A DNA stretch of 21,078 nt, taken from Planctomycetota bacterium (GTDB lineage Bacteria > Planctomycetota > Brocadiia > Brocadiales > Brocadiaceae). Each line of letters starts with the position of its first letter. The stretch's first letter is position 1. The translations under genes and the position numbers were made by a program. Shown in pieces: positions 1 to 16,780 of the stretch. The notes under the pieces are model-generated. The model was not told the DNA's origin, did no database searches, and saw nothing but the letters and a program-made list of their open reading frames with translations. The DNA lies in contig VGXV01000054.1 in NCBI GenBank assembly GCA_016873165.1, positions 1 through 21,078 on the forward strand, given 5' to 3'.

Positions 1-2093
1 ATAAAACACCCGTTGGTTTCTTCAAAAGTAGTAATTATTCCGATACATTTGCTCGATGCAGTTTGTTTGAATAAAAATATTGTATCCGTTATTATAGAAT
101 TAATATCTATGTTCTTCATAAATGCTTCTTTTGCTTTTGCCAAATCGAACATCACCTCTATAAGCCTGTTTATTCTGCCTAATTCTTTCAGAGCAATTTT
201 TTGGAAATTATTATTAAACTCTTCATTGTCTTTTTGGTGAGGCAAAAGTTGAAAATAGGTGTTAATAGGCACAAGCGGATTCTTAATTTCATGGGCAATA
301 TTCGCTGCAAGGCTTCCTAAATATGCCAGGCGGTCTGCTTGCTGTTTTTCCGCGCGAAGTATTTTTAATTCAGAGAGGTCTGTTACTATCATCAACGTTC
401 CCAGTTTTTCCCCTTTCTCCGTCTTTAGCTTGCTCGTAGAAACTCCCACCGGTATTTTTTTATTATCTCTTTCAATAATAGCCTCAATGTCATTAATTTC
501 TATATTGCTTTTCAATGCATAGAGCAGAAAACGATATATCTCCTTGCCGAGGGCTGCAACCACTTTTTCTGTAGAATACGCATTTTTCAAACCGAGTATC
601 TTTTTCGCTTCGGTGTTCATGAGGGTCACCTTCTTTTCATCCTCAAAAACAATCACGCCGCTTTTCAAACTTTGCAGGATATTATCACGATAAATTTTTT
701 CTTCATTGAGTCTGTTATAGAGCCGCGCATTATTAATTGCCATAGTCAATTGCCCTGAAAATGCCAGAAACATCTGAATATCTTCCAATGTAAATATTTT
801 CTTGTTAATTTTTTTCCCCAGCAGAATTAATCCGAAAATATCCCCTCTCTGGTAAATAGGAATACAAATATTCACCCGCAGAGAAGCCAGAGCCTGTTCC
901 AGATTATTTTCAATTTCATTTCTCGAAAAACGATTCAATTGTTCCTGAGAAAGCACGGTTTCATTCTCCCGGAGCCAGGTTATTACATTATCTCCTTCAT
1001 TAATAACGATCTCATTCCCGACAGGGAAATTGATAGATGCTTTTAAACTATACTTTTTATTTTCATCTTTTGTCAGGATGCAAATATTTTCAATTCCGAC
1101 AGAGTCATATAAGTATTGCGCCGCATTAAGGAACAGCCCCTTCAAATCATTTATGGAAGAAAACAATACTGTTGATTCCTTCAATATTGCAGGATGGCTA
1201 TATTTTACCCTGAACAATGTTTTTTCAACATAGTATTGAATCGATTCGCGGGTATACATAAAAGTTAAAATAATCACTGCGGTGGAAACACTATTTTTAA
1301 TCGTTTCTTTGTACTCGGAAACAGGCATTAATTTGCCAAGAATGAACCCAACCGCAAAATAAATAATTCCGAGGAAAACTGAGATTACACCATATACCGT
1401 GCTCCGCTTTATGATCAGCGTTATGTCTAAAAGATGATATTTTACAATTGCATACGCGACAGCAACAGGTATCGGAATAGAAGCAAAAGAAACAAACCTT
1501 TCTACCTGCCATATTCCCGCAAGCGGAAGCAGAAAGTTTGTAACAGACCCTAAAAATAACGAGGTCGCCACTCCCAGGTACAAATATCGTATCTGCAGCC
1601 TCTTAATGCCATAATAACCCTTGCTTTTTCTATATAAAATATATAAGGAATACGCCATACACGCTGTAAAATAAAAACAAAAAACTGGAAATAAGGGGCC
1701 GTAATCAGGATGATGCGACTGGTTTTCAAAAGATACCGCCCTGACAATAAAGGGGCAAAGCGCCGCAATGGCAATGCTTATCATCAGGAACAGAAAACCG
1801 AGGATTTTGTTGATTCGACTTTCCAGACGATCCGGAAACACGCTGGAAAAAAAGAAAAAAGAAAAAGGAATGAAGGACGCCGCGCAAAAAACCAACCGAA
1901 GTCTGTAAGTTGCAAGCGCGGGATCATTTGTCTGCAATGTAAAAAAGATAAAAAAATTCCAAACGGCAAACGCCTGAGCAAAAATGCAAAACCTTCTGTT
2001 CACGACATTGGAAGGATTCTTCATGAGGACAAAGATTCCAATGCCCGCATAAAACGCCGTAATAAAAGTAAGCGCGCTTTGATTGAAATTCAT
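1..2093 (-). CDS. Sensor histidine kinase, 3'-partial (multi-TM N-terminal domain, GAF, PAS, HisKA; the ATPase domain lies beyond the window edge)
   Basis: Absent from the supplied ORF track because it has no stop in the window. My manual minus-strand translation from the ATG at 2093-2091 stays open to position 3. It begins MNFNQSALTFITAFYAGIGIFVLM and has at least 7 hydrophobic segments. A GAF-like block follows (ICIPIYQRGDIFGLILLGKK...QLTMAINNARLY), then a PAS-like block (NILQSLKSGVIVFEDEKKVTLMNTEAKKILG). The H-box LAANIAHEIKNPL is encoded at 273-311. The gene starts 10 nt after the KAS stop. Confidence 0.85.
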   Translation of the reverse strand, partial: MNFNQSALTFITAFYAGIGIFVLMKNPSNVVNRRFCIFAQAFAVWNFFIFFTLQTNDPALATYRLRLVFCAASFIPFSFFFFSSVFPDRLESRINKILGFLFLMISIAIAALCPFIVRAVSFENQSHHPDYGPLFPVFCFYFTACMAYSLYILYRKSKGYYGIKRLQIRYLYLGVATSLFLGSVTNFLLPLAGIWQVERFVSFASIPIPVAVAYAIVKYHLLDITLIIKRSTVYGVISVFLGIIYFAVGFILGKLMPVSEYKETIKNSVSTAVIILTFMYTRESIQYYVEKTLFRVKYSHPAILKESTVLFSSINDLKGLFLNAAQYLYDSVGIENICILTKDENKKYSLKASINFPVGNEIVINEGDNVITWLRENETVLSQEQLNRFSRNEIENNLEQALASLRVNICIPIYQRGDIFGLILLGKKINKKIFTLEDIQMFLAFSGQLTMAINNARLYNRLNEEKIYRDNILQSLKSGVIVFEDEKKVTLMNTEAKKILGLKNAYSTEKVVAALGKEIYRFLLYALKSNIEINDIEAIIERDNKKIPVGVSTSKLKTEKGEKLGTLMIVTDLSELKILRAEKQQADRLAYLGSLAANIAHEIKNPLVPINTYFQLLPHQKDNEEFNNNFQKIALKELGRINRLIEVMFDLAKAKEAFMKNIDINSIITDTIFLFKQTASSKCIGIITTFEETNGCF

Positions 2094-2103
2094 TCTTTAC
2101 CGT

Positions 2104-3345
2104 TCAGGAATATTTTTTTAATAAAAGCACGGAATGCGACCCCCCGACGCTATGCCCGTTTATTAATATCACATTCATACTGGCATATCTCGCAACGTTA
2201 GGAACATAATCAAGATCGCAACACGGATCAGGCTCATCCAAATTAATTGTCGGTGGAATTATTCCGTTTTTCAGACTCAAACACCCTGCCACCGCCTGAA
2301 AACCGCCGCCGGCGGCAAAAGACTGGCCTGTCATAGACTTTATCGAACTGACCGGTATACGATATGCGTAATTCCCAAAAAAAACCTTAAACGCATTGGT
2401 TTCCGCAATATCATAACCTGGAATCGCATTGCCATGGGCACAAATATAATCTATTTCTTCTTTATATACTTTTCCCTTATTTAATGCCTGTTCCATCGCC
2501 GTAATCAAGGCATTTCCACTTACGTCCGATTGCACGATCTCCTGCGCCTCGCTTGATGATGCATATGATATTACCTCTGCGTAAATATCCGCTCCCCGGT
2601 TCAACGCATGATCCAGTTCCTCCATTACCAGCGTTGCTCCGCCTTCGCTCAATACCATGCCGTCGCGATCTTTATCATACGGTCTTGAAGCCTTTTCCGG
2701 CTCACTGTTTCTTTTTGAAAGGATACCCAGAGAATTTAATGCCGACATAGGAAACGGGAAAATAGGGGCATCGGAACACCCTGCCACTGCAATATCGATC
2801 TCTCCCTGCCGGATCATCCGGAAACCCCAATTGACAACATCAAGCCCCGTGATACAGCCCGAAGATAATGTAGAATTCGGACCCGTAATTTTCAATTCCG
2901 AGCAAATGTAGCCCGCTGCCACGTGAGGTGTGAGTTCCGGGGCTGTAAGCCTGCTTACGGCTTTTAATCCGCCATCCAAAAATCTTTTATATTGCCTCTC
3001 GTATATTTCGTTCTCCGCTCCTATTGTGGTGCCAAAACACACACCACATCGGTCTCTGTTTTCCGCTCCCAAATCTATACCGGAATCCTGCACCGCCATC
3101 TTCGCCGTCGCTACGCCAAAATGGGTAAACCGCGCGCTTCTTTTCACATATTTTTCCGCTAAATATTTGCACGGATCAAAATTTTTTACCTCACCGGCAA
3201 TGTGTGTATGAAGAAAAGACGGATCAAATGCGGCAATACGCTTAATACCCGATCTTCCGTTCGCCAAAGCATCCCAGTATGCCTTTTTTCCGTTGCCGTT
3301 AGGCGCCAATATTCCCAGTCCTGTAACAACAACACGTCTTTCCAT
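2104..3345 (-). CDS. Beta-ketoacyl-ACP synthase, FabF/FabB (KAS I/II) family, divergent paralog
   Basis: 413-aa ORF. It shows RVVVTGLGILAPNG at the N-terminus, the active-site Cys in LSSGCITGLD, the first catalytic His in ICAHGNAIPGYD, and a KSMTG motif. The C-terminus reads PPTINLDEPDPCCDLDYVPN, like FabF PPTINLDNPDEGCDLDFVP. The second catalytic His is Gln (see findings). Confidence 0.9.
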   Translation of the reverse strand: MERRVVVTGLGILAPNGNGKKAYWDALANGRSGIKRIAAFDPSFLHTHIAGEVKNFDPCKYLAEKYVKRSARFTHFGVATAKMAVQDSGIDLGAENRDRCGVCFGTTIGAENEIYERQYKRFLDGGLKAVSRLTAPELTPHVAAGYICSELKITGPNSTLSSGCITGLDVVNWGFRMIRQGEIDIAVAGCSDAPIFPFPMSALNSLGILSKRNSEPEKASRPYDKDRDGMVLSEGGATLVMEELDHALNRGADIYAEVISYASSSEAQEIVQSDVSGNALITAMEQALNKGKVYKEEIDYICAHGNAIPGYDIAETNAFKVFFGNYAYRIPVSSIKSMTGQSFAAGGGFQAVAGCLSLKNGIIPPTINLDEPDPCCDLDYVPNVARYASMNVILINGHSVGGSHSVLLLKKYS

Positions 3346-3429
3346 CTTGCACTTTAAATACTACCATTAGGTTTTTATGAAACGTTATACTTAAATTTAT
3401 TGTAACTCTTCAGCGTAAATGCGACACGG

Positions 3430-3605
3430 CTCTTTCCCAAGTTCCGGCTTGGGAACGCACGTGCCCGGGAAGCTTCTGCTTCTCATAACAGGAAGCAAAG
3501 CTTCCTTCACAATTGCGTTCCAAAGCCAGAGTTTTGGAACGAAAAGCCCCTTCGACTCCGCTCAGGGTGACATGCTTTTTCATATTACCATGCTGAGCGA
3601 AGATT
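3430..3605. repeat. Cluster of four consecutive palindromic stem-loops (REP-like intergenic element)
   Basis: Hairpins paired by hand. (1) 3434-3455: ttcccaag/cttgggaa, 8 bp. (2) 3468-3505: ggaagcttctgcttc/gaagcaaagcttcc, 14 bp with one bulge. (3) 3517-3540: gttccaaa/tttggaac, 8 bp. (4) 3550-3602: cgctcag...catg/catg...ctgagcg. They fill the gap between the radical SAM stop (3613) and the KAS start (3345). Confidence 0.7.
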
Positions 3606-3612
3606 TATTTGA

Positions 3613-5469: not shown

Positions 5470-6846
5470 TTAATTTGCAATTTGCTCAATCCCGTATTTT
5501 TGCATCTTGTAATGAATCACGCTTCGCGTAGTGCCAAGGAGCTTTGCAGCCCTTGATTTTACGCCGCCTGCTTTCTGCAAGGCATGTTCTATCAATTGTT
5601 TTTCAATACGCGCTATTTCATCCTCGAGACACACCTTTTCATTTTCATTTGATTTCGCTTTTTGCAAATTGCAAGGAATTCCCATAATCTCTGCCGGCAA
5701 ATGTTCGGGAAGCAATACCGGTTCATTTCCATAAAGGGCTATTGCCCGTTCCAGCACGTTTTTCAATTCTCTTACATTTCCCGGCCAATGATATGCCAGC
5801 ATCAATTCCATCGCCTCACGGGAAATAAATTCGCTTTTTGCGTGGCATTCCTTTCTGTATATTTTATAGAAGTGTTCTACCAACTGTGATATGTCTTCCG
5901 GCCTCTCCCTGAGGGGGGGAATGTAGATAGGAACGACATTAATCCGGTAATAAAGATCTTCCCGGAAAAGGCCTTCTTTGATTTTTGCTTCCAAATCCTT
6001 ATTTGTTGCGGCAATAATACGAACATCCGCTTTAATGAGGGAATTCCCCCCGATACGGGAAAACTCCTTTTCCTGCAAAACCCGCAGCAATTTCGATTGC
6101 AAAAGAAGGTTTATCTCGCTTATCTCATCCAAAAAAATAGTCCCTCCTTCCGCAATTTCAAACTTCCCCTCCTTTCTCTCATACGCACTGGTGAACGATC
6201 CCTTCTCATGGCCGAAAAGTTCCGATTCCAGCAGCTCTCCCGCCAAATTAGGACAGCTTACCACAACAAAAGGCCTGTCTCTCCTGTCGCTGTCAAAATG
6301 AATCGCGCGCGCGACCAATTCTTTTCCCGTTCCGCTCTCTCCACGCAAAAGCACCGTGGCATTGACACGGGAAACACGCGAAATGGTATCGATCACCCCC
6401 TCCATTACTTTACTATGCCCATGAATTATTCTGTCCACAAAATAATTCCTGCATTCAGACCGCAAGTAACGTACTTCTCTGCTTAAATTTCTGAATTTTA
6501 ATGCCTTTTGAATCGCTAATTTAATCTCCTCAACGCCAAATGGCTTTACAATATAATCCAATGCGCCCAATTTCACCGCGTCAACGATTGACTTAACATC
6601 GTGCACCGCAGTCAGAATAATCACGCCTATTTCCTGATTTATTGGCTGCAATCTCTTTAATAATTCCATACCACCCATTTCAGGCATTCTCAAATCCAGC
6701 AACACAAGATCTATATGTTCCCTGTCTATTACCTGCAAAGCCTCTTTGCCGCTATTTACGCCAATAATCGAATAGCTTTCCTTTAAAACAAAACGCAGGG
6801 ATTCTACGACACTTTGTTCGTCATCAACAATTAATATGGTTTTCAT
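5470..6846 (-). CDS. Sigma54-dependent response regulator (NtrC/AtoC family: REC, AAA+, Fis-type HTH)
   Basis: 458 aa. REC motifs: ILIVDDE, LVLLDLRMPEMGG, KPF. AAA+ motifs: Walker A GESGTGKE, Walker B IFLDEI, sigma54-contact loop GSFTSA, and REDLYYRI. C-terminal HTH: SRAAKLLGTTRSVIHYKMQKYGI. Confidence 0.93.
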   Translation of the reverse strand: MKTILIVDDEQSVVESLRFVLKESYSIIGVNSGKEALQVIDREHIDLVLLDLRMPEMGGMELLKRLQPINQEIGVIILTAVHDVKSIVDAVKLGALDYIVKPFGVEEIKLAIQKALKFRNLSREVRYLRSECRNYFVDRIIHGHSKVMEGVIDTISRVSRVNATVLLRGESGTGKELVARAIHFDSDRRDRPFVVVSCPNLAGELLESELFGHEKGSFTSAYERKEGKFEIAEGGTIFLDEISEINLLLQSKLLRVLQEKEFSRIGGNSLIKADVRIIAATNKDLEAKIKEGLFREDLYYRINVVPIYIPPLRERPEDISQLVEHFYKIYRKECHAKSEFISREAMELMLAYHWPGNVRELKNVLERAIALYGNEPVLLPEHLPAEIMGIPCNLQKAKSNENEKVCLEDEIARIEKQLIEHALQKAGGVKSRAAKLLGTTRSVIHYKMQKYGIEQIAN

Positions 6847-8968
6847 TGCACATTATATCCGGCAGCAACACATTAAAACAACTGCCGCAATTCTCCTCCG
6901 TTGAGAAATAAATAAAACCATCATATTCTTCGATAATTCTCTGCGAGATAGAAAGTCCAAGCCCGACATTATGCGTCTTTGTGGTAAAAAAGGGAAGGAA
7001 GATTTCTTTGATATTTTCTCTGCTTATTCCGCATCCCGTATCTTGTATCGATACTTCGACGTAATTTTCAGGTTCTTCGGACGGCATTCTGATATTATAA
7101 AATTTTGACATGACTCCGCTGGAATTTATGGAATGAAACATCTCCTTAATTCTTGTATCATCCAATACCAATCTGTTAAGTTTTATTGTTAATGATCCTC
7201 CCTCTTTCATTGATTCCAGCGCGTTAAGAATTATATTGGAAAACGCTTCCTGCAGTTTTTCACTATCCCCATTTACAAAGGCTGCGTCGCCTGAAAATTG
7301 TTTTATTAATTTCACACGTAATTTTTCCACTTTGTCTGCATGGAAATTTAATGCCTGATCGATTGCGAACCTGACATCCACCATCCTCCTCGTAATATTG
7401 CCGTTTTCTCCCAAAATTGTTAACTTTTTTACCATGAGGTCGAGTTTATTTATCTCATTTTGCGCCACAGGGAAAAATTGCCCCTCAAATTCCTTTTCTT
7501 CGTGTTTTTCGGGAAATAAATCAACGAACGTTTTCACCGCCACAAGGTGATTCTTGATATAATGCGCCATATTTTTGCTTAACATATGATAAAACGCCTG
7601 ATTTTCCAGCGTTTTCACCCGGGACTCCAGTTTTTTCACCTCGCTCAAATCGGTAAAAACCATAATTGCCCCAAGCAAGTTATCCTTGTCAGATAATAAA
7701 GCGGTGCTCACTGCAAATGTAGCGTGCGTCACCGGATGTTCAATTTCATACACCTCATATATTTTTTTCTCCTTCAGCGTCCTTAAAATAATATCGGCAA
7801 AGAGAGAACCTATATATTTAACATCCTTTCCTAATATATTCTGCGGGGAAGTATGCAGCATATTTGCCGCGCCTTTATTGAAGGTATTTACTTTATAGCT
7901 GCAATCGATTGCAATCACACCGCACGGTATATTTTCCAAAACATTCTCGTTATGAATTTTCCTCAGATTCACTTCCTGATAAAGAATGGCGTTCTCCAAG
8001 GCCATGCCTATGTATCTTGACAACATTGTAAGCAATTCAATATCTTCATCATTGAATTCCTTCCCTGTTATTTTATTTCCCAGTGAGATGGCACTGATAA
8101 GGCTTCCCTTTACAAAAACAGGGACACAAAGTTGTGCTTGTAATATATTAATTTCCTTCTGAACCCTTATTATTTCCCGTCTTTTTAGGTTATCTGTAGC
8201 AATCTTTTTTTCAAAAATATCCCTTTTTAATATCTGATGCTTTTTCGATAACCACAACATCACCCCATCGTGCGCACTGAAAGAGATATTATTTGCTGTA
8301 GTTTCATCAATCCCTATGCAGCGAAACGGCTTGCATATACCATCTTCTTTGTCTGTCAATAAAAAAACTATCTTGCCTACTCTAAATATTTCAGACAATG
8401 CTTCCACTATCAGGTCAACAAGTTTTTTAAGATCATGGACATACGCCAATGCCTTTGAAAATTTTTGAAAGACCTCTTTATACGCAAGCTGATAATTTTC
8501 TCTCATGCTTGTTTGCCGGGCATAATTATGCTCCATTGTTCCGTTGCCCTTGCCATTCGAACTGAAATGCCGCATTTGTGTTTGAATAAATCCGATCTCT
8601 TTTTTCAGTTCCTGCCTCTCTAACGCCCGCTTAACGGCATATTGCACTGCTTCGCTTTTCAATGGTTTTTCAAGAAATTCATACGCTCCGATTTTTATCG
8701 CTTCCTGCACTAATATCGGCTGGGCAGAGGGCACAAGGGCAATAATTGTCGGGTCCGCGTTTGTTTGACGAAAAAAATCAAACATTCGATTTGTTTCTTC
8801 GGTTTTCATGAGAATATCCAAAAAAACGACATCAATTTCCTGATTCAAAAATAAATGGAACGTATCTTCTGTGTTTTTGGCAAAAAGGAGGGAAAAATCT
8901 CTCTGAAAAGATTTTTTTAGAAGATTCTGCATCGCATCATCTTTTGAAATTAATAGAAAGGAATGCAT
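6824..8968 (-). CDS. Hybrid sensor histidine kinase (N-terminal REC, GAF, PAS, HisKA, HATPase_c)
   Basis: 714 aa with RBS GGGGAGA 5 nt upstream of the ATG. The REC-like N-terminus has DVVFLDILM and EKPL. A GAF-like block (VPVFVKGSLISAISLGNK) and a PAS-like block (VLENIPCGVIAIDCSYKVNTFNKGAANML) follow. The H-box is NMAHYIKNHL. The ATPase G-boxes are QDTGCGI and GLGLSISQRII. Its stop overlaps the response-regulator start by 23 nt. Confidence 0.88.
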   Translation of the reverse strand: MHSFLLISKDDAMQNLLKKSFQRDFSLLFAKNTEDTFHLFLNQEIDVVFLDILMKTEETNRMFDFFRQTNADPTIIALVPSAQPILVQEAIKIGAYEFLEKPLKSEAVQYAVKRALERQELKKEIGFIQTQMRHFSSNGKGNGTMEHNYARQTSMRENYQLAYKEVFQKFSKALAYVHDLKKLVDLIVEALSEIFRVGKIVFLLTDKEDGICKPFRCIGIDETTANNISFSAHDGVMLWLSKKHQILKRDIFEKKIATDNLKRREIIRVQKEINILQAQLCVPVFVKGSLISAISLGNKITGKEFNDEDIELLTMLSRYIGMALENAILYQEVNLRKIHNENVLENIPCGVIAIDCSYKVNTFNKGAANMLHTSPQNILGKDVKYIGSLFADIILRTLKEKKIYEVYEIEHPVTHATFAVSTALLSDKDNLLGAIMVFTDLSEVKKLESRVKTLENQAFYHMLSKNMAHYIKNHLVAVKTFVDLFPEKHEEKEFEGQFFPVAQNEINKLDLMVKKLTILGENGNITRRMVDVRFAIDQALNFHADKVEKLRVKLIKQFSGDAAFVNGDSEKLQEAFSNIILNALESMKEGGSLTIKLNRLVLDDTRIKEMFHSINSSGVMSKFYNIRMPSEEPENYVEVSIQDTGCGISRENIKEIFLPFFTTKTHNVGLGLSISQRIIEEYDGFIYFSTEENCGSCFNVLLPDIMCNENHINC

Positions 8969-9593: not shown

Positions 9594-10583
9594 ATGAACA
9601 AAATGGTACATCTTGCAAATATACTTGTAATTGATGATGAAATAGGGATAAGGGAATCGCTGCGGATAATTTTTCTTGATACGTATGAGGTGCATCTCGC
9701 CGCAAATATCGCAGAGGCGACTCTGTTTTTGAAAGAAATTGACATTGATATCGTTTTTCTTGATATAAAAATGTCGCATGAAAACGGCCTTGACTTCCTC
9801 AAAACCATAAAAACCACGTATCCAACAATTCCTGTTGTTATAATAACGGCATTTCCCTCATCACAAACTGCAATTGCCGCGCTAAGAAATGGGGCATTTG
9901 ATTATATTGTCAAACCGTTCGATTACGCGGAAATTCTTGAGACGGCAAAAAGGGCCTTAAATCAACGTTCAAGCGATGCCGATAAGGAAAATATGATTTA
10001 TTCCTTAAGAAAGGCTGTCCATCAGAACTTTTTTTCCACTACGGAAGCACTGCTGCATGCCATCGATGCTAAAGACTCCTATACCGCAGGGCACTCCAAA
10101 AGGGTATCGTTTTCGATTGCTTTTATTTCGGAAAAACTGGGAATGAACACTCTTCAGACTGAAACGCTCCGATACGGAGCTTTTCTTCATGATATCGGAA
10201 AGATTGGTGTGAGTGACTTTGTTCTGACAAAACCAGGCCCCCTTACAGAAGATGAGTTTGAAATGATAAAACGACACCCGGATATAGGATATAAGATCCT
10301 GGAGCCTATACATTTCTTAAAGGATAGTTTATCAATTGTACGGCATCATCATGAATGGTATAGCGGAGAAGGATATCCTGACGGGTTAAAAGGCGATGAA
10401 ATACCCTTTGAGGCAATGGTTCTTTCTGTAGTGGATGCATATGACGCATTGACAACAGACAGGCATTATCGTATAAAATATTCACATAAAAAGGCTCTGG
10501 AAATTATATCAGAGAGAATAAATGTACAATTTGCTCCGTCTATAACCGAAAAAATTCTTTCTATTATCGATAAATACCATTAA
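9594..10583 (+). CDS. Response regulator with an HD-GYP domain (RpfG-type c-di-GMP phosphodiesterase)
   Basis: 329 aa with RBS GGAG 9 nt upstream. REC motifs: ILVIDDE, IVFLDIKM, VVIITAF, VKPF. HD-GYP motifs: HSKRV, FLHDIGKIGV, RHHHEWYSGEGYPDGL. Confidence 0.92.
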   Translation: MNKMVHLANILVIDDEIGIRESLRIIFLDTYEVHLAANIAEATLFLKEIDIDIVFLDIKMSHENGLDFLKTIKTTYPTIPVVIITAFPSSQTAIAALRNGAFDYIVKPFDYAEILETAKRALNQRSSDADKENMIYSLRKAVHQNFFSTTEALLHAIDAKDSYTAGHSKRVSFSIAFISEKLGMNTLQTETLRYGAFLHDIGKIGVSDFVLTKPGPLTEDEFEMIKRHPDIGYKILEPIHFLKDSLSIVRHHHEWYSGEGYPDGLKGDEIPFEAMVLSVVDAYDALTTDRHYRIKYSHKKALEIISERINVQFAPSITEKILSIIDKYH

Positions 10584-10607
10584 TTGAACACCCCTGGTAA
10601 TGCCCGA

Positions 10608-11954
10608 ATGAAATTGCAAAAAAATATCTTTGAAAAAATTTTATTTCCCCTTTTCCTATTACTTCCTGTTTATTTCCTTATTCATTTTTCCGCAGAAACA
10701 AATGTTTCGGCGCAAATAGCATCCGGATTGCATAATCCTACATTTTGCGCATCCGGGCTTGCGCAGGGAAATGCTGTTGTTGCCCGCACGCATGACGCTT
10801 CTGCCGTTCTGTTTAATCCTGCCGGTCTTACTCAATTAGAAAGAGCCGAAGTTTCTGTCGGCGCCAGTTTTGTAACTCCTTTTATCGAGTATCACGGCAA
10901 TGGCATAAGCGAGGATATGGACACGCAAATAAATACGATACCAAACGTTTATTATGCCTCTCCCATAATAAACAACACATTAGCCGCAGGCATCGGCATA
11001 ACCGTTCCTTACGGACTCAGCGGAGAATGGGAGGAAGATGGGTTTTCCCGATATGTTGTTACCGATTTTTATCTGCAGGTAATCAATATTAATCCGACAA
11101 TTACCTACAAACCGTTTTCATTTCTTTCAGTCGGGGCGGGTTTTGATTACTACACAACAGAATTTGACCTGGAAAGACGCCTCAATCTCGGAGCGCTGAA
11201 CTCTTCACTAACGGGAACTGCAATAGACCCTTCGACGTCTGAGGGATATCAGGATATCGATGATATGCACGGCGATGGTTACGGATATAATGTTGGCATA
11301 CTCTATAACATCACTCCCCGCCACAGTATCGGCGCTTCGTTCCGGAGCAAGGCTGATATTGATGTAAAAGGCTCTATGAAGTTTTTTAATTTAAGCGGCG
11401 CAACTGCCGGAATCTTTGGAGCAGAAACATACTCCACCCGCGCAAAAACAGATACTACTATTCCGGAAATGCTTACCTTTGGTTACGCATATCATCATGG
11501 AGAGCGATGGAGTATGGAGGCGGATATCCAGTGGACAAACTGGTCACGTTTCGATGATCTTAGATACAGTTTTGATCCGACAAATATCTTGCTGGAATCC
11601 GACAATACCGACGAAAGAAACTGGCATAACACACTCGGAGTCGCATTGGGCGGAGAATATCAGATTAATGCCGCCCTGAAAGCGCGAGGGGGATATTCTT
11701 TTCACGAAACTCCCGTCCCCAGCGATACATTTGAACCCTCAGTTCCACAGGGAAGCAGGCATGGAATTCATCTCGGCGCAGGGTATGGTTGGGGAAAATA
11801 TTTAAACAAAGTTGTGGATGTTGCTTACAGCGCAATATTTTACGAGGACAGAACAATAAACAATTCTGTTGGAGATGCCTCTTTAGGGCCTATTGACGGG
11901 ACGTATGAAATAATTACCCATATTCTTGCCGTCAATTTCACCTACAAATTCTGA
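10608..11954 (+). CDS. Outer-membrane transport protein, OMPP1/FadL/TodX family
   Basis: The ORF track starts at TTG 10584. I prefer ATG 10608, which gives MKLQKNIFEKILFPLFLLLPVYFLIHFSAETNVSA|Q, a signal-peptide-like N-terminus. The FadL-type N-terminal region is SGLAQGNAVVARTHDASAVLFNPAGLTQL. The body has alternating beta-strand character and ends in the barrel signature NFTYKF. Confidence 0.85.
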   Translation: MKLQKNIFEKILFPLFLLLPVYFLIHFSAETNVSAQIASGLHNPTFCASGLAQGNAVVARTHDASAVLFNPAGLTQLERAEVSVGASFVTPFIEYHGNGISEDMDTQINTIPNVYYASPIINNTLAAGIGITVPYGLSGEWEEDGFSRYVVTDFYLQVININPTITYKPFSFLSVGAGFDYYTTEFDLERRLNLGALNSSLTGTAIDPSTSEGYQDIDDMHGDGYGYNVGILYNITPRHSIGASFRSKADIDVKGSMKFFNLSGATAGIFGAETYSTRAKTDTTIPEMLTFGYAYHHGERWSMEADIQWTNWSRFDDLRYSFDPTNILLESDNTDERNWHNTLGVALGGEYQINAALKARGGYSFHETPVPSDTFEPSVPQGSRHGIHLGAGYGWGKYLNKVVDVAYSAIFYEDRTINNSVGDASLGPIDGTYEIITHILAVNFTYKF

Positions 11955-12107: not shown

Positions 12108-12353
12108 GTGCACTTTAATAAATGCAAATATTTAGAGCAAAATTTACTTAGGAAAGAACCAGAGGGTGGCTATCCGGTAATTGATCCTTCTCTACCATGC
12201 TATATTACCTATGGAAATACTATTGATGATGCAGTCAAAATGGCAAAAGAAGCAATTGAGCTGTATATAGAAAGTTTGAAAACACACGGTGAAGAAATAC
12301 CTACAGAGGAAGATACCTTAGAATGCACCTTAACAATAAAATCTCATACCTAA
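12108..12353 (+). CDS. hicB: HicB-like / UPF0150-family antitoxin-fold protein, possibly frameshifted at its 5' end
   Basis: The core is KEPEGGYPVIDPSLPCYITYGNTIDDAVKMAKEAIELYIESLKTHGEEIPTEE. This matches the HicB pattern (E)GGY-V-PDLPGC-T-G-T-EEA-KEAIEL-LE-GE-IP. The listed start is GTG. An ATG at 12122 in another frame encodes MQIFRAKFT and then a stop. That peptide would fit a canonical HicB N-terminus if one base near 12148 were removed. Confidence 0.6.
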   Translation: MHFNKCKYLEQNLLRKEPEGGYPVIDPSLPCYITYGNTIDDAVKMAKEAIELYIESLKTHGEEIPTEEDTLECTLTIKSHT

Positions 12354-12367
12354 ACTTCCGCCTTGTA

Positions 12368-13483
12368 CTACCGATACTCAAGAATTATCGGCATTGTTTG
12401 CGAGAATACCGGTTCAATCAGATCCGTCTCAAAACTGTTGGTCAGAAGCACCCAGATGAGTCCGCTATCCGGAAAATAATAGTATTCGCCCTGAAACCCG
12501 CTCGATGCACCGCTATGGGTCCACGTTTCGCCGAAGTCGGTCATCACCCGTTCGACGCCGAGTCCGTAATCGCTCTCCGCTCCGAATCGCGTCATCTTGT
12601 CCAGGGACTCCTCCGATAACACCGTCTGGTCAATAAAGAGAGCGAGGAGGAAGCGGGCAACGTCGGACGGAGTCGAAATGATTCCACCGTCACCGAGACC
12701 AAGCCCGTCATTGTAGTCCGTGACGTCCTTCAGCCTCTTGTTGTCGTCATATTCGTATCCATGCGTCGACAGGGAGCGCGTACTTGCCTCGAATTCAACG
12801 AAGGTATCCGAGAGTTCGAGCGGATCGAATAACAATTCCCGCATAAGCGTCGATAACCGCTTGTGCATCACGCGACTCAATATCTTCCCCATCATCGTGT
12901 AGTTGGTATTCGAGTAAAAAAACTTCTGTCCCGGGCTGAATTTCGGGGAGAGGTCATATACCATCTCGATCGTCTCCTTGGCTGTCCAGCGATGGTGCGG
13001 ATTCGATGAGTACACCTCATCAAAACCTTCGGTATCAAGGTAATCAGGAATCCCGCTCTTCATCGCAAGCAGGTGACGGACGGTTACCTTTTTCCCGTTA
13101 GGCACCCGGTCGAAATCCACCACGTCTTTCAGATAACGTCTTGCCCGCGACTTGAGGCGTAAGGACGAGTTTTCCTCCAGCATGAGGCTGACGGCCGCGA
13201 TGAACGTCTTCGTCATACTCGCTATTCGGAAATTATCCGACGTGGTCAGCGATTGTCCACCCTTGCCCCGCTTATTCTTTCCCGATGCGAGCGAGACTAT
13301 CTCGTGGTTCGGCAGGATCACGCATAAGGACGCGCCGGGCGTAACCGTCGAGTCGGACACCTTCTCATCGAGAACCTTTTGCAACCGGCCCGTAAGCTCG
13401 TCCACCGTATCGGCATGGGCCGGCAACGGGACGCACACGAACATCGCCAGGAACAGGATCAAGGCCATGCGCATAAATATCAT
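12368..13483 (-). CDS. Secreted serine hydrolase, beta-lactamase/transpeptidase-like (class C / esterase EstB-like family)
   Basis: Motifs: SxxK (ASMTKTF), YxN (FYSNTNY) and a KTG-like HSG (WTHSGASSG). I prefer ATG 13483, giving MIFMRMALILFLAMFVCVPLPAHA|D, a signal peptide, with GGAGA 2 nt upstream. The track start at 13537 lies inside the MITE. The gene is clearly GC-richer than its surroundings. Confidence 0.85.
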   Translation of the reverse strand: MIFMRMALILFLAMFVCVPLPAHADTVDELTGRLQKVLDEKVSDSTVTPGASLCVILPNHEIVSLASGKNKRGKGGQSLTTSDNFRIASMTKTFIAAVSLMLEENSSLRLKSRARRYLKDVVDFDRVPNGKKVTVRHLLAMKSGIPDYLDTEGFDEVYSSNPHHRWTAKETIEMVYDLSPKFSPGQKFFYSNTNYTMMGKILSRVMHKRLSTLMRELLFDPLELSDTFVEFEASTRSLSTHGYEYDDNKRLKDVTDYNDGLGLGDGGIISTPSDVARFLLALFIDQTVLSEESLDKMTRFGAESDYGLGVERVMTDFGETWTHSGASSGFQGEYYYFPDSGLIWVLLTNSFETDLIEPVFSQTMPIILEYR

Positions 13484-13493
13484 CGTCTCCAAC

Positions 13494-13633
13494 GGGAGCA
13501 TTCCCAATTTTTTGTAAATCAAAATAAAGCCGACCATAAAGGATCGGCGCTACCATGCAATATGTGTCGTAGCGCGGGTGGTTTATCCCCCGCATAATAC
13601 CTCCACATTTTACAAAAAATTGGGAATGCTCCC
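13494..13633. mobile_element. 140-bp MITE (non-autonomous derivative of the IS at 20869)
   Basis: It has 25-bp terminal inverted repeats: GGGAGCATTCCCAATTTTTTGTAAA at 13494-13518 and its reverse complement at 13609-13633. A 9-bp direct duplication GTCTCCAAC flanks it at 13485-13493 and 13634-13642. The first 60 bp are identical to 20869-20928. Internal hairpins include gcgctac...gtagcgc. Confidence 0.8.
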
Positions 13634-14585: not shown

Positions 14586-15026
14586 TTAAGGATGAAAATC
14601 CGGTTCGTGATGATGATCATCATGCGAATGTGTTTTCTTTTTCTCAAGACCTTTTCCCGTTGTCTTCTTTAAATAATCGTCAATTGCACCCTCAATTGCT
14701 TCTTCCGCCAATACGGAGCAATGCATCTTCGCGGGCGGCAAACCGCCTAATGCCTCCGCAACCGCCTTGTTGGTAAGCTGTAATGCTTCATCAAGAGTTT
14801 TTCCTATAATCATTTCCGTAGAAATACTGCTTGTGGCAATCGCCGCGCCACAGCCAAATGTCTTGAATTTTGCATCTACAATGACATTATCTTTTACTTT
14901 AATCGACATTTTCATAATATCGCCGCATGCCGGATTTCCCACCTCTGCAACACCATCTGCCTCAGTAATTTCTCCCACATTACGCGGATTTGCAAAATGA
15001 TCCATTACCTTTGCGCTATACTGCAT
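14586..15026 (-). CDS. iscU: Fe-S cluster scaffold IscU/NifU N-terminal-type, with a His-rich C-terminal tail
   Basis: Motifs: NPACGD, FKTFGCGAAIA and LPPAKMHCSVLAEEA (all three Cys ligands, plus Asp and His). The tail is KKKTHSHDDHHHEPDFHP. Confidence 0.95.
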   Translation of the reverse strand: MQYSAKVMDHFANPRNVGEITEADGVAEVGNPACGDIMKMSIKVKDNVIVDAKFKTFGCGAAIATSSISTEMIIGKTLDEALQLTNKAVAEALGGLPPAKMHCSVLAEEAIEGAIDDYLKKTTGKGLEKKKTHSHDDHHHEPDFHP

Positions 15027-15041
15027 AGAAAACTCCTTATT

Positions 15042-15596
15042 TCAAAATATATCTTTTAATTCTATTTTTAACCCTTTTAAAGAAGGCGACTCAAGGGTAT
15101 CGGTTTTAGAATACGTAGCATGAAGCGGATAAATACACTCCTTCAGGATATGAACTTCTATTTCTTTCTCTTCCGGAATCACTATCCAGTATTCCCTTAC
15201 GCCGAATCTTGCATAAAGCCTCTTCTTCTGCACCATATCCCGGTAAACACTGTATTCTGAGAGAATTTCTATCACAATATCCGGCGCACCCTGTATATTT
15301 TTTTGACCGATAATGTTCAGTCTGTTTTTTGAGATAAAAAAGATATCCGGATGGACTACATTTTCTTCGTCAAAATATACATCGCACGGAGCATAAAGTG
15401 TTTTTCCAAGGTCATTTCTTAAAACAAAATCTTTTAACCGGCTATAAAGTTCCGACGAGACTAATTGCTGTTTAGGGACAGGGGATGGAGTCATGAGCAG
15501 TTCTCCGTTAATGAGTTCATACCACTTGTCATCTGGAATTTTTAAATAATCTTCGTATGTATACTTTTTCTTTTCTACGATAAGAGTCGATGTCAT
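15042..15596 (-). CDS. Uma2-family (DUF820) putative endonuclease
   Basis: 184 aa. Matching segments: YELINGELLMTPSP, VVHPDIFFIS, GAPDIVIEILSEYSVYRDMVQKKRLYARFGVREYWIV. These fit the Uma2 pattern ELI-GE...PD...GAPDLVVEILSPS...D...K...YA..GV.EYWIVDP. Confidence 0.85.
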   Translation of the reverse strand: MTSTLIVEKKKYTYEDYLKIPDDKWYELINGELLMTPSPVPKQQLVSSELYSRLKDFVLRNDLGKTLYAPCDVYFDEENVVHPDIFFISKNRLNIIGQKNIQGAPDIVIEILSEYSVYRDMVQKKRLYARFGVREYWIVIPEEKEIEVHILKECIYPLHATYSKTDTLESPSLKGLKIELKDIF

Positions 15597-15607
15597 ACCG
15601 CACCTCG

Positions 15608-16780
15608 TTAAAAATTATTTTTCCGATTATATAAAGGCGACATTTGTCGGAGGCGTTCGACAATGGGCGGCAATTTTTCCAGGACGTATTTCACGTCGTT
15701 CTCGGAATTATCAATCCCCATACTGAAAAGCACGGTTCCCTGAGCAATCGCCGCATCAACACCTGTGGCCATTATAACATGTGATGCCTTCAACGAACGT
15801 GAGGTGCATGCAGACCCGCTTGATATTGCAATCCCCTGCATATCCAAAAACAACAGCACAGACTCGCCTTCAATAAATTCGATACAGATGCTCAGATGTC
15901 CCGGAAGCTTGTTTGCCGGATGCCCATTTACATATATATTGCTTATTTTCTTCAACAGTCCTTCGCACAACATATCTCTTAGTTTCCGTACATGTTCCAG
16001 CCGTTGCGGCATTTCAGTTTTTGCCAATTCGGCAGCCTTTCCCATGCCCACAATTCCAATAACATTCTCGGTTCCGGCCCTTCTTCCTCCCTCCTGAACC
16101 CCGCCTTCTATAAAAGGCATAATCCTTATCCCCTCTCTCACATAAAGAGCCCCGATTCCTGTCGGGCCGTAGAACTGGTTCGCAGACATGCTTAACACGT
16201 CAACAGGCATCGTTGAAACATCTATTGGAACATTCCCCGCCGCAGCTACGGCATCCGTATGAAAAATAATATCCTTTGCCTTAACAATTTCCGAAATTTC
16301 TCTGATAGGTTCAATAGTTCCGATTTCATTGTTGGCAAACATTATTGATGCCAATATCGTTGTCGGTTTAATTGCGCTTCTTACGTCATCAGGGTGCACC
16401 AATCCGTATTTATCAACGGGCAAATAAGTTATTTCGTATCCTGATTTCTCTAGTGATTTCAAAGGATTGAGAATGGAAAAATGTTCTATCTCTGAGGTAA
16501 TGATATGGTTGCCCTTCTTTTTATTCGCGGCAGAGATTCCTTTTATCGCAAAATTGTTAGCCTCCGTGCCGCTTGCTGTAAAAATAATTTCATTCGCTTT
16601 TGCATTGATAAGGCTTGCCACATTCTCCCGCGCAATTCTTATCGCATCATTTGTAATTTTTCCAAATTGATGCAGGTTTGAAGGATTGCCAAACCCTTCT
16701 TTTAAAAATGGAATAATTGCCTCTCTCACGTGCGGATGCATTGGGGTGCCTGCCGCATTATCCATATAAAGTTTTTCCAT
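15608..16780 (-). CDS. nifS: NifS/IscS-like class V aminotransferase-fold protein (cysteine desulfurase homolog lacking the PLP lysine)
   Basis: 390 aa. Motifs: YMDNAAGTP, FTASGTEANN, SEIEHFS, FHTDAV, GGRRAGTENV and the active-site loop SSGSACTS. The usual S-x-H-K-x-x-GP-x-G motif reads SANQFYGPTG (see findings). Confidence 0.9.
   Translation of the reverse strand: MEKLYMDNAAGTPMHPHVREAIIPFLKEGFGNPSNLHQFGKITNDAIRIARENVASLINAKANEIIFTASGTEANNFAIKGISAANKKKGNHIITSEIEHFSILNPLKSLEKSGYEITYLPVDKYGLVHPDDVRSAIKPTTILASIMFANNEIGTIEPIREISEIVKAKDIIFHTDAVAAAGNVPIDVSTMPVDVLSMSANQFYGPTGIGALYVREGIRIMPFIEGGVQEGGRRAGTENVIGIVGMGKAAELAKTEMPQRLEHVRKLRDMLCEGLLKKISNIYVNGHPANKLPGHLSICIEFIEGESVLLFLDMQGIAISSGSACTSRSLKASHVIMATGVDAAIAQGTVLFSMGIDNSENDVKYVLEKLPPIVERLRQMSPLYNRKNNF

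Follow-up and report, generated by a model that had tools for sequence, protein, structure and literature searches.

We analysed a 21,078-nt stretch of DNA from a planctomycete of the family Brocadiaceae (GenBank assembly GCA_016873165.1, contig VGXV01000054.1, positions 1 to 21,078; hereafter the window), in which a minus-strand open reading frame (ORF) encodes P0001, a FabF-like beta-ketoacyl synthase (KS) of 413 aa. P0001 has glutamine (Gln341) in place of the second histidine of the Cys-His-His catalytic triad and, judging by alignments and phylogeny, this residue is the mark of a so far unstudied lineage among the condensing enzymes of fatty-acid type. The KS gene and the gene of a seven-transmembrane (7TM) sensor histidine kinase that follows it form a near-obligate, conserved and tightly spaced pair. 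On balance, the comparative evidence makes it probable that P0001 is an active condensing enzyme which uses an amide for the second histidine and is paired with the kinase in a signalling unit.

The initial annotation of this stretch, made from its letters alone, had read the minus-strand codon at 2325–2323 as CAG, residue 341 within SIKSMTGQSFAAGGG, and had placed that residue in the column of Escherichia coli FabF His340. Both readings were confirmed: in a phmmer comparison with the Listeria FabF structures 5sxo and 3o04, Gln341 pairs with the His of KSMTGH and NGHSVGG with NSFGFGG, and a profile alignment of 290 KS domains puts Gln341 in the same column. Residues 164, 304, 336 and 341 of P0001 correspond to 163, 303, 335 and 340 of E. 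coli FabF, and the numbers 396–404 are identical in both. Also as annotated, P0001 retains Cys164 (SSGCITG), His304 (CAHGNA) and Lys336, and has NSFGFGG altered to NGHSVGG (396–402). Gating loop 2 differs as well, the DAYH-type loop being replaced: it reads DAYHMTSPPEN in E. coli FabF, whose gatekeeper is Phe400 (PMC9006962), and SEAQEIVQSDVSG in P0001.

[quoted passage not shown] Its score against the NCBIfam fabF equivalog TIGR03150 (412.8 bits) is below the cut-off of 493.75, and the one model whose threshold it clears is PRK07314, a broad subfamily model (400.5 versus a cut-off of 387). The AlphaFold2 model (pLDDT 95.1) superposes on Bacillus subtilis FabF (Foldseek TM 0.97, rmsd 1.2 A), so the predicted scaffold is a complete KAS II fold. 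P0001 shares with the FabF/KAS II enzymes of B. subtilis (4LS5/4LS8) and E. coli (1KAS/2GFW) the full-length fold, 37–40% identity, Cys164, His304, Lys336, the motif SRPxDxxRDG and the overall length (~413 aa), but differs from them in Gln341, Gln350, His398, Val400, His404, N-A-I in place of the TxT motif and the replaced loop 2. Unlike FabF, it is also coupled to a sensor kinase and encoded outside any fab cluster, in a genome that has a separate canonical FabF. By its equivalog score, its triad and its lack of the GFGG gate and DAYH loop 2, P0001 falls outside the FabF/KAS II equivalog. The initial annotation was right in that the triad and gate loop are altered and set this enzyme apart from FabF.

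That annotation had also left room for a single-base error at codon 341. The window stretch is present in several lake-water metagenome runs, and contigs from four of them, two of which had not been flagged as possible sources of the window, span positions 2323–2325 with the codon unchanged. Gln occupies column 341 in ~100 of the 120 closest database clusters and His in ~15, including one Brocadia subgroup, and N-x-H-S-V-G-G-(T/S)-H is common to all of those closest clusters. Since Gln is the majority residue among homologues, chance or error is no explanation for it: Gln341 is fixed and inherited. A sequencing or assembly error is excluded, and a decaying inactive paralogue or a partner of the chain-length factor (CLF) type can be regarded as extremely improbable. 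Although a single base separates CAG from CAC and CAT, independent contigs agree and more than 100 homologues share the Gln; the reading frame is intact, the structural model is confident, and Cys, His and Lys are kept, unlike in CLF-type proteins. The related suggestion of a non-decarboxylating, CLF-like partner is unlikely too, given that Cys164, His304 and Lys336 are present in at least 97% of 150 relatives (see below) and that mostly there is no second KS. Within the KS gene the sole variant in the metagenome contigs is T>G at 2234, found in contigs of two runs (X8 and X9); it affects the middle base of codon 371 on the coding strand and represents, by our own count, a Glu-to-Ala polymorphism in the LDEPDP segment.

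Phylogenetic analysis relied on a midpoint-rooted FastTree of 290 KS domains, the input to which combined word-index matches, representatives chosen at a 50% identity level and the five remaining KS proteins encoded in the same genome. P0001 belongs to a clade of 150 of these domains (support 0.99), in which position 341 is occupied by Gln in 118 members, His in 16, Asn in 13, and Asp, Ala and Ile in one each. By parsimony, the residue at the root is Gln, the tree requires nine changes at this position, and members with His form no fewer than five separate groups. Cys164 is present in 147 members, His304 in 146 and Lys336 in 146. Several further positions distinguish the clade from canonical enzymes, including 306 (Thr to Asn, Val or Pro), 308 (Thr to Ile, Leu or Met), 311 (Asn to Tyr), 341 (His to Gln), 344 (Gly to Ala), 350 (Glu to Gln, 149 of 150), 398 (Phe to His, 140 of 150), the gate position 400 (Phe to Val, Met or Leu) and 404 (Asn to His, 103 of 150); the TxT motif after His304 is lost. 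Position 350 holds Glu in 82 of 105 Cys-His-His relatives, and a sister group of the clade carries Cys-His-Asn. We refer to this group, which was defined in the present analysis and is unpublished, as the kinase-coupled Cys-His-Gln KS clade; its definition, Gln350, His398, an aliphatic residue at 400, Gln, Asn or His at 341 and a HisKA_7TM-GAF-PAS histidine kinase gene directly downstream on the same strand, fits P0001 in every respect.

The coupling to a 7TM sensor kinase, the strongest feature of the system, had been missing from the initial annotation. The kinase gene of the window runs on into contig C120 and has no paralogue in the genome. A 7TM kinase directly follows the KS in 11 of the 12 genome loci; in the twelfth, which belongs to a relative of 57% identity, several genes lie between the two. 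Among 12 genomes of the family, including the window's own, nine have both KS and kinase and in three neither was found, and across 301 sampled genomes of the phylum strong matches to the 7TM region were confined to those nine KS-bearing genomes. A metagenome scan with a motif consisting of DLDYVP, 15 codons and HxxGG returned 80 loci, which cannot be used to gauge the conservation of His398, as the motif demands this residue (a trial pattern, DPxCDLDYV, also occurs in canonical FabF and matched only Cys-His-His FabF genes). Gln350 is present in 73 of the 80 loci, two of the 73 being amxFabFmut-type, and the triads among these 73, in one-letter code, are CHQ in 39 (plus eight partial), CHH in 15 (plus two partial), CHN in four, CHS in two, CCN in one and VNE in two. 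A homologue of the window kinase, with similarity beginning in the 7TM region, lies downstream in 57 of the 60 Cys-bearing family loci that have a same-strand downstream ORF; a median of 4 nt separates the two genes, and in many pairs they share 4 nt. In one example, the Pfam architecture of the kinase is HisKA_7TM-GAF-PAS-HisKA-HATPase and downstream of its gene lie those for another GAF-PAS kinase and for a hybrid kinase; in locus L147 a sigma54-dependent regulator follows. Some long ORFs beside high-GC metagenome loci (e.g. L207 1–2703) are likely in the wrong frame and were ignored. A 7TM kinase homologue also directly follows Cys-His-His/Glu350 KS genes at L266 (G176:C31, 1519–4229), L175 and L186, which indicates that the coupling is older or wider than the Gln substitutions.

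With regard to the kinase itself, an AlphaFold2 model of residues 1–270 (window positions 1284–2093; pLDDT 85) predicts a bundle of seven helices in which helix 4 is followed by a beta-hairpin. Homology of this domain to G protein-coupled receptors was considered and rejected, as the Foldseek TM scores of ~0.5–0.6 amount to a generic seven-helix-bundle likeness only. Separately, canonical-site FabF-like domains were found fused to other modules (P0324–P0335, P0341, P0350, P0337 and P0384), namely a second KS, PocR-GGDEF (~780 aa), PilZ or a B12-binding radical SAM domain (1253 aa, a cluster of 17); such fusions represent further links of KS domains with signalling modules and B12 radical SAM enzymes.

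Table 1. Features of the window and, in the last three rows, of related loci (numbered within each locus).
Feature	Position	Strand	Remarks
HisKA_7TM-GAF-PAS-HisKA sensor histidine kinase	3..2093	-	Starts 10 nt past the KS stop; cut by the contig end
FabF-like KS, P0001	2104..3345	-	413 aa
Remodelled gate/oxyanion loop N396-G-H398-S-V400-G-G-S-H404	2134..2160	-	Canonical NSFGFGGxN
Gln350 codon	2296..2298	-	E. coli FabF E349 position; most invariant marker of the clade, 149/150
Gln341 codon, CAG	2323..2325	-	E. coli FabF His340 position; alignments and metagenome contigs
Lys336 codon (Lys of KSMTG)	2338..2340	-	146/150 clade members
His304 codon, first catalytic His (CAHGNA)	2434..2436	-	Canonical T-x-T after the His reads N-A-I
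Acyl-accepting Cys164 codon (SSGCITG)	2854..2856	-	Cys in 147/150 clade members
Intergenic spacer, palindromic dispersed repeat	3346..3612	-	267 nt; between radical SAM and KS genes
B12-binding radical SAM protein, P0003	3613..5397	-	Pfam PF02310 + PF04055; upstream of KS
Sigma54-dependent response regulator (REC-AAA+-HTH_8)	5470..6846	-
REC-GAF-PAS-HATPase hybrid histidine kinase	6824..8968	-
REC-HD (HD_5) response regulator	9594..10583	+	Divergent from the operon
FadL/TodX-family outer-membrane channel, hydrophobic compounds	10584..11954	+	Syntenic in Brocadiaceae-type loci
Extra KS pair, L044	11613-14200
Extra KS pair, L045	3215-5796
Extra KS pair, L222	10932-12128

The genome that contains the window (4.05 Mb, 40% G+C) has six KS genes: one for a FabF of canonical type, with Cys-His-His and NSFGFGG, a CHH/VNE pair corresponding to amxFabF2/amxFabFmut (kuste3605/3606), a CHH/FNE pair corresponding to kuste2804/2805, and that of P0001, which is at most 41% identical to the others (for the basis of the ladderane-paralogue assignments, see PMC2649909, PMC4790861 and bioRxiv 10.64898/2026.05.19.726425). 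The closest homologues of P0001 bear the names Candidatus Kuenenia (91% identity) and Brocadia and Jettenia (70–75%), and the placing of the host in the Kuenenia/Brocadia group of anammox bacteria (those that oxidise ammonium anaerobically) rests on these database names of near-identical proteins. A one-contig 4.4-Mb genome of the same genus, with seven KS genes, has no P0001 orthologue, its best match (40%) being the canonical FabF; an orthologue was also not found in a second genome of this genus (two of four in total) or in several other genera of the family. In the 301-genome sample, clade KS proteins occur only in this family, in eight of 11 genomes besides the window's own; above-threshold matches in two further genomes, G176 and G216, turned out to be Cys-His-His/Glu350 genes and not clade members. 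Within the order, a second family contributes a 57%-identical member of the clade. The majority of relatives stem from non-anammox environmental metagenomes, one of them labelled Rokubacteria.

The gene order around the pair is conserved as well in the 12 genome loci: genes for FadL and the REC-HD regulator lie on one strand and, divergently from them, those for the hybrid kinase, the sigma54 regulator (eight of 12), the B12 radical SAM protein (12 of 12) and the KS. Among the 80 metagenome loci, the B12 radical SAM gene adjoins the KS in only six, three of anammox type and L147, L190 and L201, in which the KS is Cys-His-Asn or Cys-His-Ser; FadL is also found beside the Cys-His-Asn/Ser relatives L147, L201 and L215. 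P0003 matches NCBIfam models weakly and far below their cut-offs (BchE, 77 bits; PhpK, 68; rSAM_ladder_B12, 58), and a search of PDB sequences with this protein gave no match. In 11 metagenome loci, including L170 (128–982, minus strand) and L226 (119–949, minus strand), a divergent gene immediately upstream of the pair encodes a conserved secreted protein of ~280 aa with a Tat-like signal, whose sole Pfam match, DUF3108, is sub-threshold (19 bits). In two genomes of Brocadia type and in one metagenome locus, an additional KS pair is inserted in the operon, between the genes for the sigma54 regulator and the radical SAM protein. One of its members has the Cys-His-His triad and NSFGFGG; the other is CLF-like, its triad positions being occupied by Ala, Ser and Phe. 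The insertion of such a pair favours a biosynthetic role for the operon, and the location of FadL or the secreted protein beside many loci also makes this role plausible. Most metagenome loci are without a second KS, and none is adjacent to the KS in the window.

In FabB and FabF, the second histidine offers its N-epsilon-H as a hydrogen-bond donor to the oxygen of the malonyl thioester, and its tautomer is held by the Lys, which is in turn salt-bridged to Glu349; in Cys-His-Asn enzymes such as FabH and chalcone synthase, the Asn amide stabilises the enolate or oxyanion. In P0001, the amide N-H of Gln341, positioned by Lys336, would replace the His N-epsilon-H as the hydrogen-bond donor and would polarise the oxygen of the thioester or enolate, and stabilise it, in condensation, as Asn does in the Cys-His-Asn enzymes, making P0001 a working condensing enzyme with a re-shaped donor and gate site. 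The likeness to FabH/KAS III and the type III polyketide synthases consists in the amide at the third triad position; these enzymes differ from P0001 in thiolase subfamily, length and topology, its amide being placed on a KAS I/II scaffold and usually, in its relatives, being Gln. The interchange of Gln, His and Asn at position 341 with Lys kept fits a conserved role as a hydrogen-bond donor, and the replacement of Glu by Gln350 that accompanies it is in keeping with a Lys network that has been re-tuned. With the TxT motif, Phe398 and the gate Phe400 all lost together, a different donor substrate or gating is possible, and the clade KS may use an altered donor.

Several observations weigh against this account. 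The TxT motif and F400 gate help to place malonyl-ACP (acyl carrier protein) in FabF (PMC9006962) and both are lost in the clade, so that the donor may differ from malonyl-ACP. A few relatives have Ser, Met, Ala or Ile at 341, which are poor hydrogen-bond donors or cannot donate. Genes for an ACP, a reductase or a thioesterase are absent nearby; a search of proteins of 724–2065 aa found no KS-kinase fusions; and a literature search on this KS family, including H340Q/H333Q-type mutants, returned nothing relevant among the papers covered. As for the pairing, gene adjacency is no proof of a signal product: the KS could be under the control of the kinase, or the two could share a task in membrane homeostasis.

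The remodelled donor side can also be read as a sign of changed chemistry, an explanation that we consider rather unlikely. P0001 would then be an acyltransferase, a non-decarboxylative condensing enzyme or an enzyme using another extender unit, which still employs Cys164 and His304 but has lost malonyl-ACP decarboxylation, with His398 and His404 as new catalytic or binding groups. The joint remodelling of positions 306, 308, 341, 350, 398, 400 and 404 and of loop 2 would fit such a change, His398 is more conserved than Gln341, and the B12 radical SAM neighbour could provide an unusual substrate. However, Gln, His and Asn are exchanged at position 341 while the other markers are kept, as if the classical role were retained, and His398 alone is no proof, being found also in the paralogue that matches amxFabF2 (NNAHAFGG). 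The latter, like P0001 a FabF paralogue in the same organisms, differs from P0001 in keeping Cys-His-His, F400 and E350; amxFabF2 and amxFabFmut act together in malonyl-ACP decarboxylation (bioRxiv 10.64898/2026.05.19.726425). The mut and CLF partners, including that of the actinorhodin KS/CLF (1TQY), lose Cys and both His, and the true CLF-like paralogues in the genome lose all three catalytic residues (VNE, FNE), whereas P0001 keeps Cys164 and His304, lies outside the KS/CLF branches of the tree and, in most loci, lacks a neighbouring partner.

A different division of labour, in which the KS is a metabolic sensor subunit that responds to acyl-ACP or malonyl-ACP, by binding it or by becoming acylated, and relays this state to the 7TM kinase, with turnover being secondary, appears unlikely. 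It would account for the tight, possibly translationally coupled pairing of the two genes and their identical presence/absence patterns, for the lack of ACP or tailoring enzymes at most loci and for the fusion of other KS domains to PocR-GGDEF and PilZ; those fusions, however, are canonical Cys-His-His proteins from other branches, the radical SAM gene and, in some cases, the KS/CLF pair give the anammox loci a biosynthetic look, and the full catalytic core is conserved. The nature of the host, an anammox bacterium of the Kuenenia/Brocadia group, brings to mind a dedicated step in the synthesis of ladderanes or another anammox-specific membrane lipid, and the radical SAM neighbour does match the 'ladder' radical SAM family, but its 58 bits are far below that family's cut-off of 360. 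With two of the four same-genus genomes, including a complete one, and other genera of the family lacking an orthologue, and with most relatives being non-anammox, this role is disfavoured as very unlikely. A P0001-type gene is not among the eight K. stuttgartiensis KS genes analysed for ladderane synthesis (PMC2649909, PMC4790861), nor is P0001 an ortholog of the ladderane-cluster KS genes (kuste3605/3606, 2804/2805 and 3346/3348/3349). By these comparisons P0001 is not a ladderane-cluster KS, which removes its gene from the list of candidates for ladderane synthesis.

Returning to the favoured reading, an active condensing enzyme paired with the kinase, gene content and order suggest that the KS-kinase pair is a lipid-linked signalling unit of the synthase/receptor type, rather than a part of bulk or ladderane lipid synthesis. 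The KS, together with the radical SAM protein where present, would make or process an acyl or ketide molecule that either serves as the kinase's ligand or informs it of the status of acyl-ACP, and FadL and the secreted neighbour would handle the hydrophobic compound. More specifically, and only tentatively, the KS could be the synthase of a fatty-acyl or ketide signal of a new class, helped in anammox bacteria by the B12 radical SAM protein, with the cognate 7TM kinase sensing the signal and passing it on to sigma54-dependent transcription and the HD regulator; if true, this would be a new lipid-based system of cell-cell or autocrine signalling in anammox and other environmental bacteria. CqsA-CqsS, LqsA-LqsS and PhcB-PhcS are known pairs of genes for a signal synthase and a sensor kinase. 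The P0001 pair would resemble them in that the gene of a lipid-metabolism-type enzyme adjoins that of a multi-pass membrane histidine kinase, with FadL nearby; it differs in that their synthases belong to unrelated families (pyridoxal phosphate-dependent enzymes, methyltransferases and KAS III-like proteins). Besides such synthase/kinase pairs (PMC8023197), ketosynthase-type signal synthases, e.g. PpyS (PMC4578411), are further analogues; in the sense that matters here, none of these is a homologue.

Cys-His-His is taken as the defining triad of elongating ketosynthases, and here a large natural clade has Cys-His-Gln or Cys-His-Asn instead, with the scaffold unchanged. As it has reverted to His repeatedly, it amounts to a mutagenesis experiment of nature on the second His, whose part in decarboxylative condensation is disputed, and the pairing with a 7TM kinase offers a testable entry to a possible new lipid signalling system. 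The hosts, anammox and uncultured environmental bacteria, are genetically hard to work with and relevant for nitrogen cycling.

The spacer between the radical SAM and KS genes folds strongly, with a z-score of -7.3, and recurs across the genome in more than 30 partial copies, with very high contig depth at 3425–3540; at orthologous loci the spacer is far shorter, or the ORF calls overlap. The spacer thus looks like a genome-specific insertion, similar to miniature inverted-repeat transposable elements or repetitive extragenic palindromes, inside the operon. Matches to the sigma54 promoter consensus were not above chance, scans for sigma70 promoters and terminators were also at chance level, and Rfam had no match in the window. 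Elsewhere in the window, a Uma2-family gene (PF05685, putative restriction endonuclease) at 15042–15596 splits a usually adjacent pair, consisting of a NifU_N scaffold gene (14586–15026) and a class-V aminotransferase/cysteine desulfurase-like gene (15608–16780). A small ORF at 12108–12353 encodes a HicB-like antitoxin domain (PF15919) and lies beside a gene of the beta-lactamase/penicillin-binding protein family (12368–13537).

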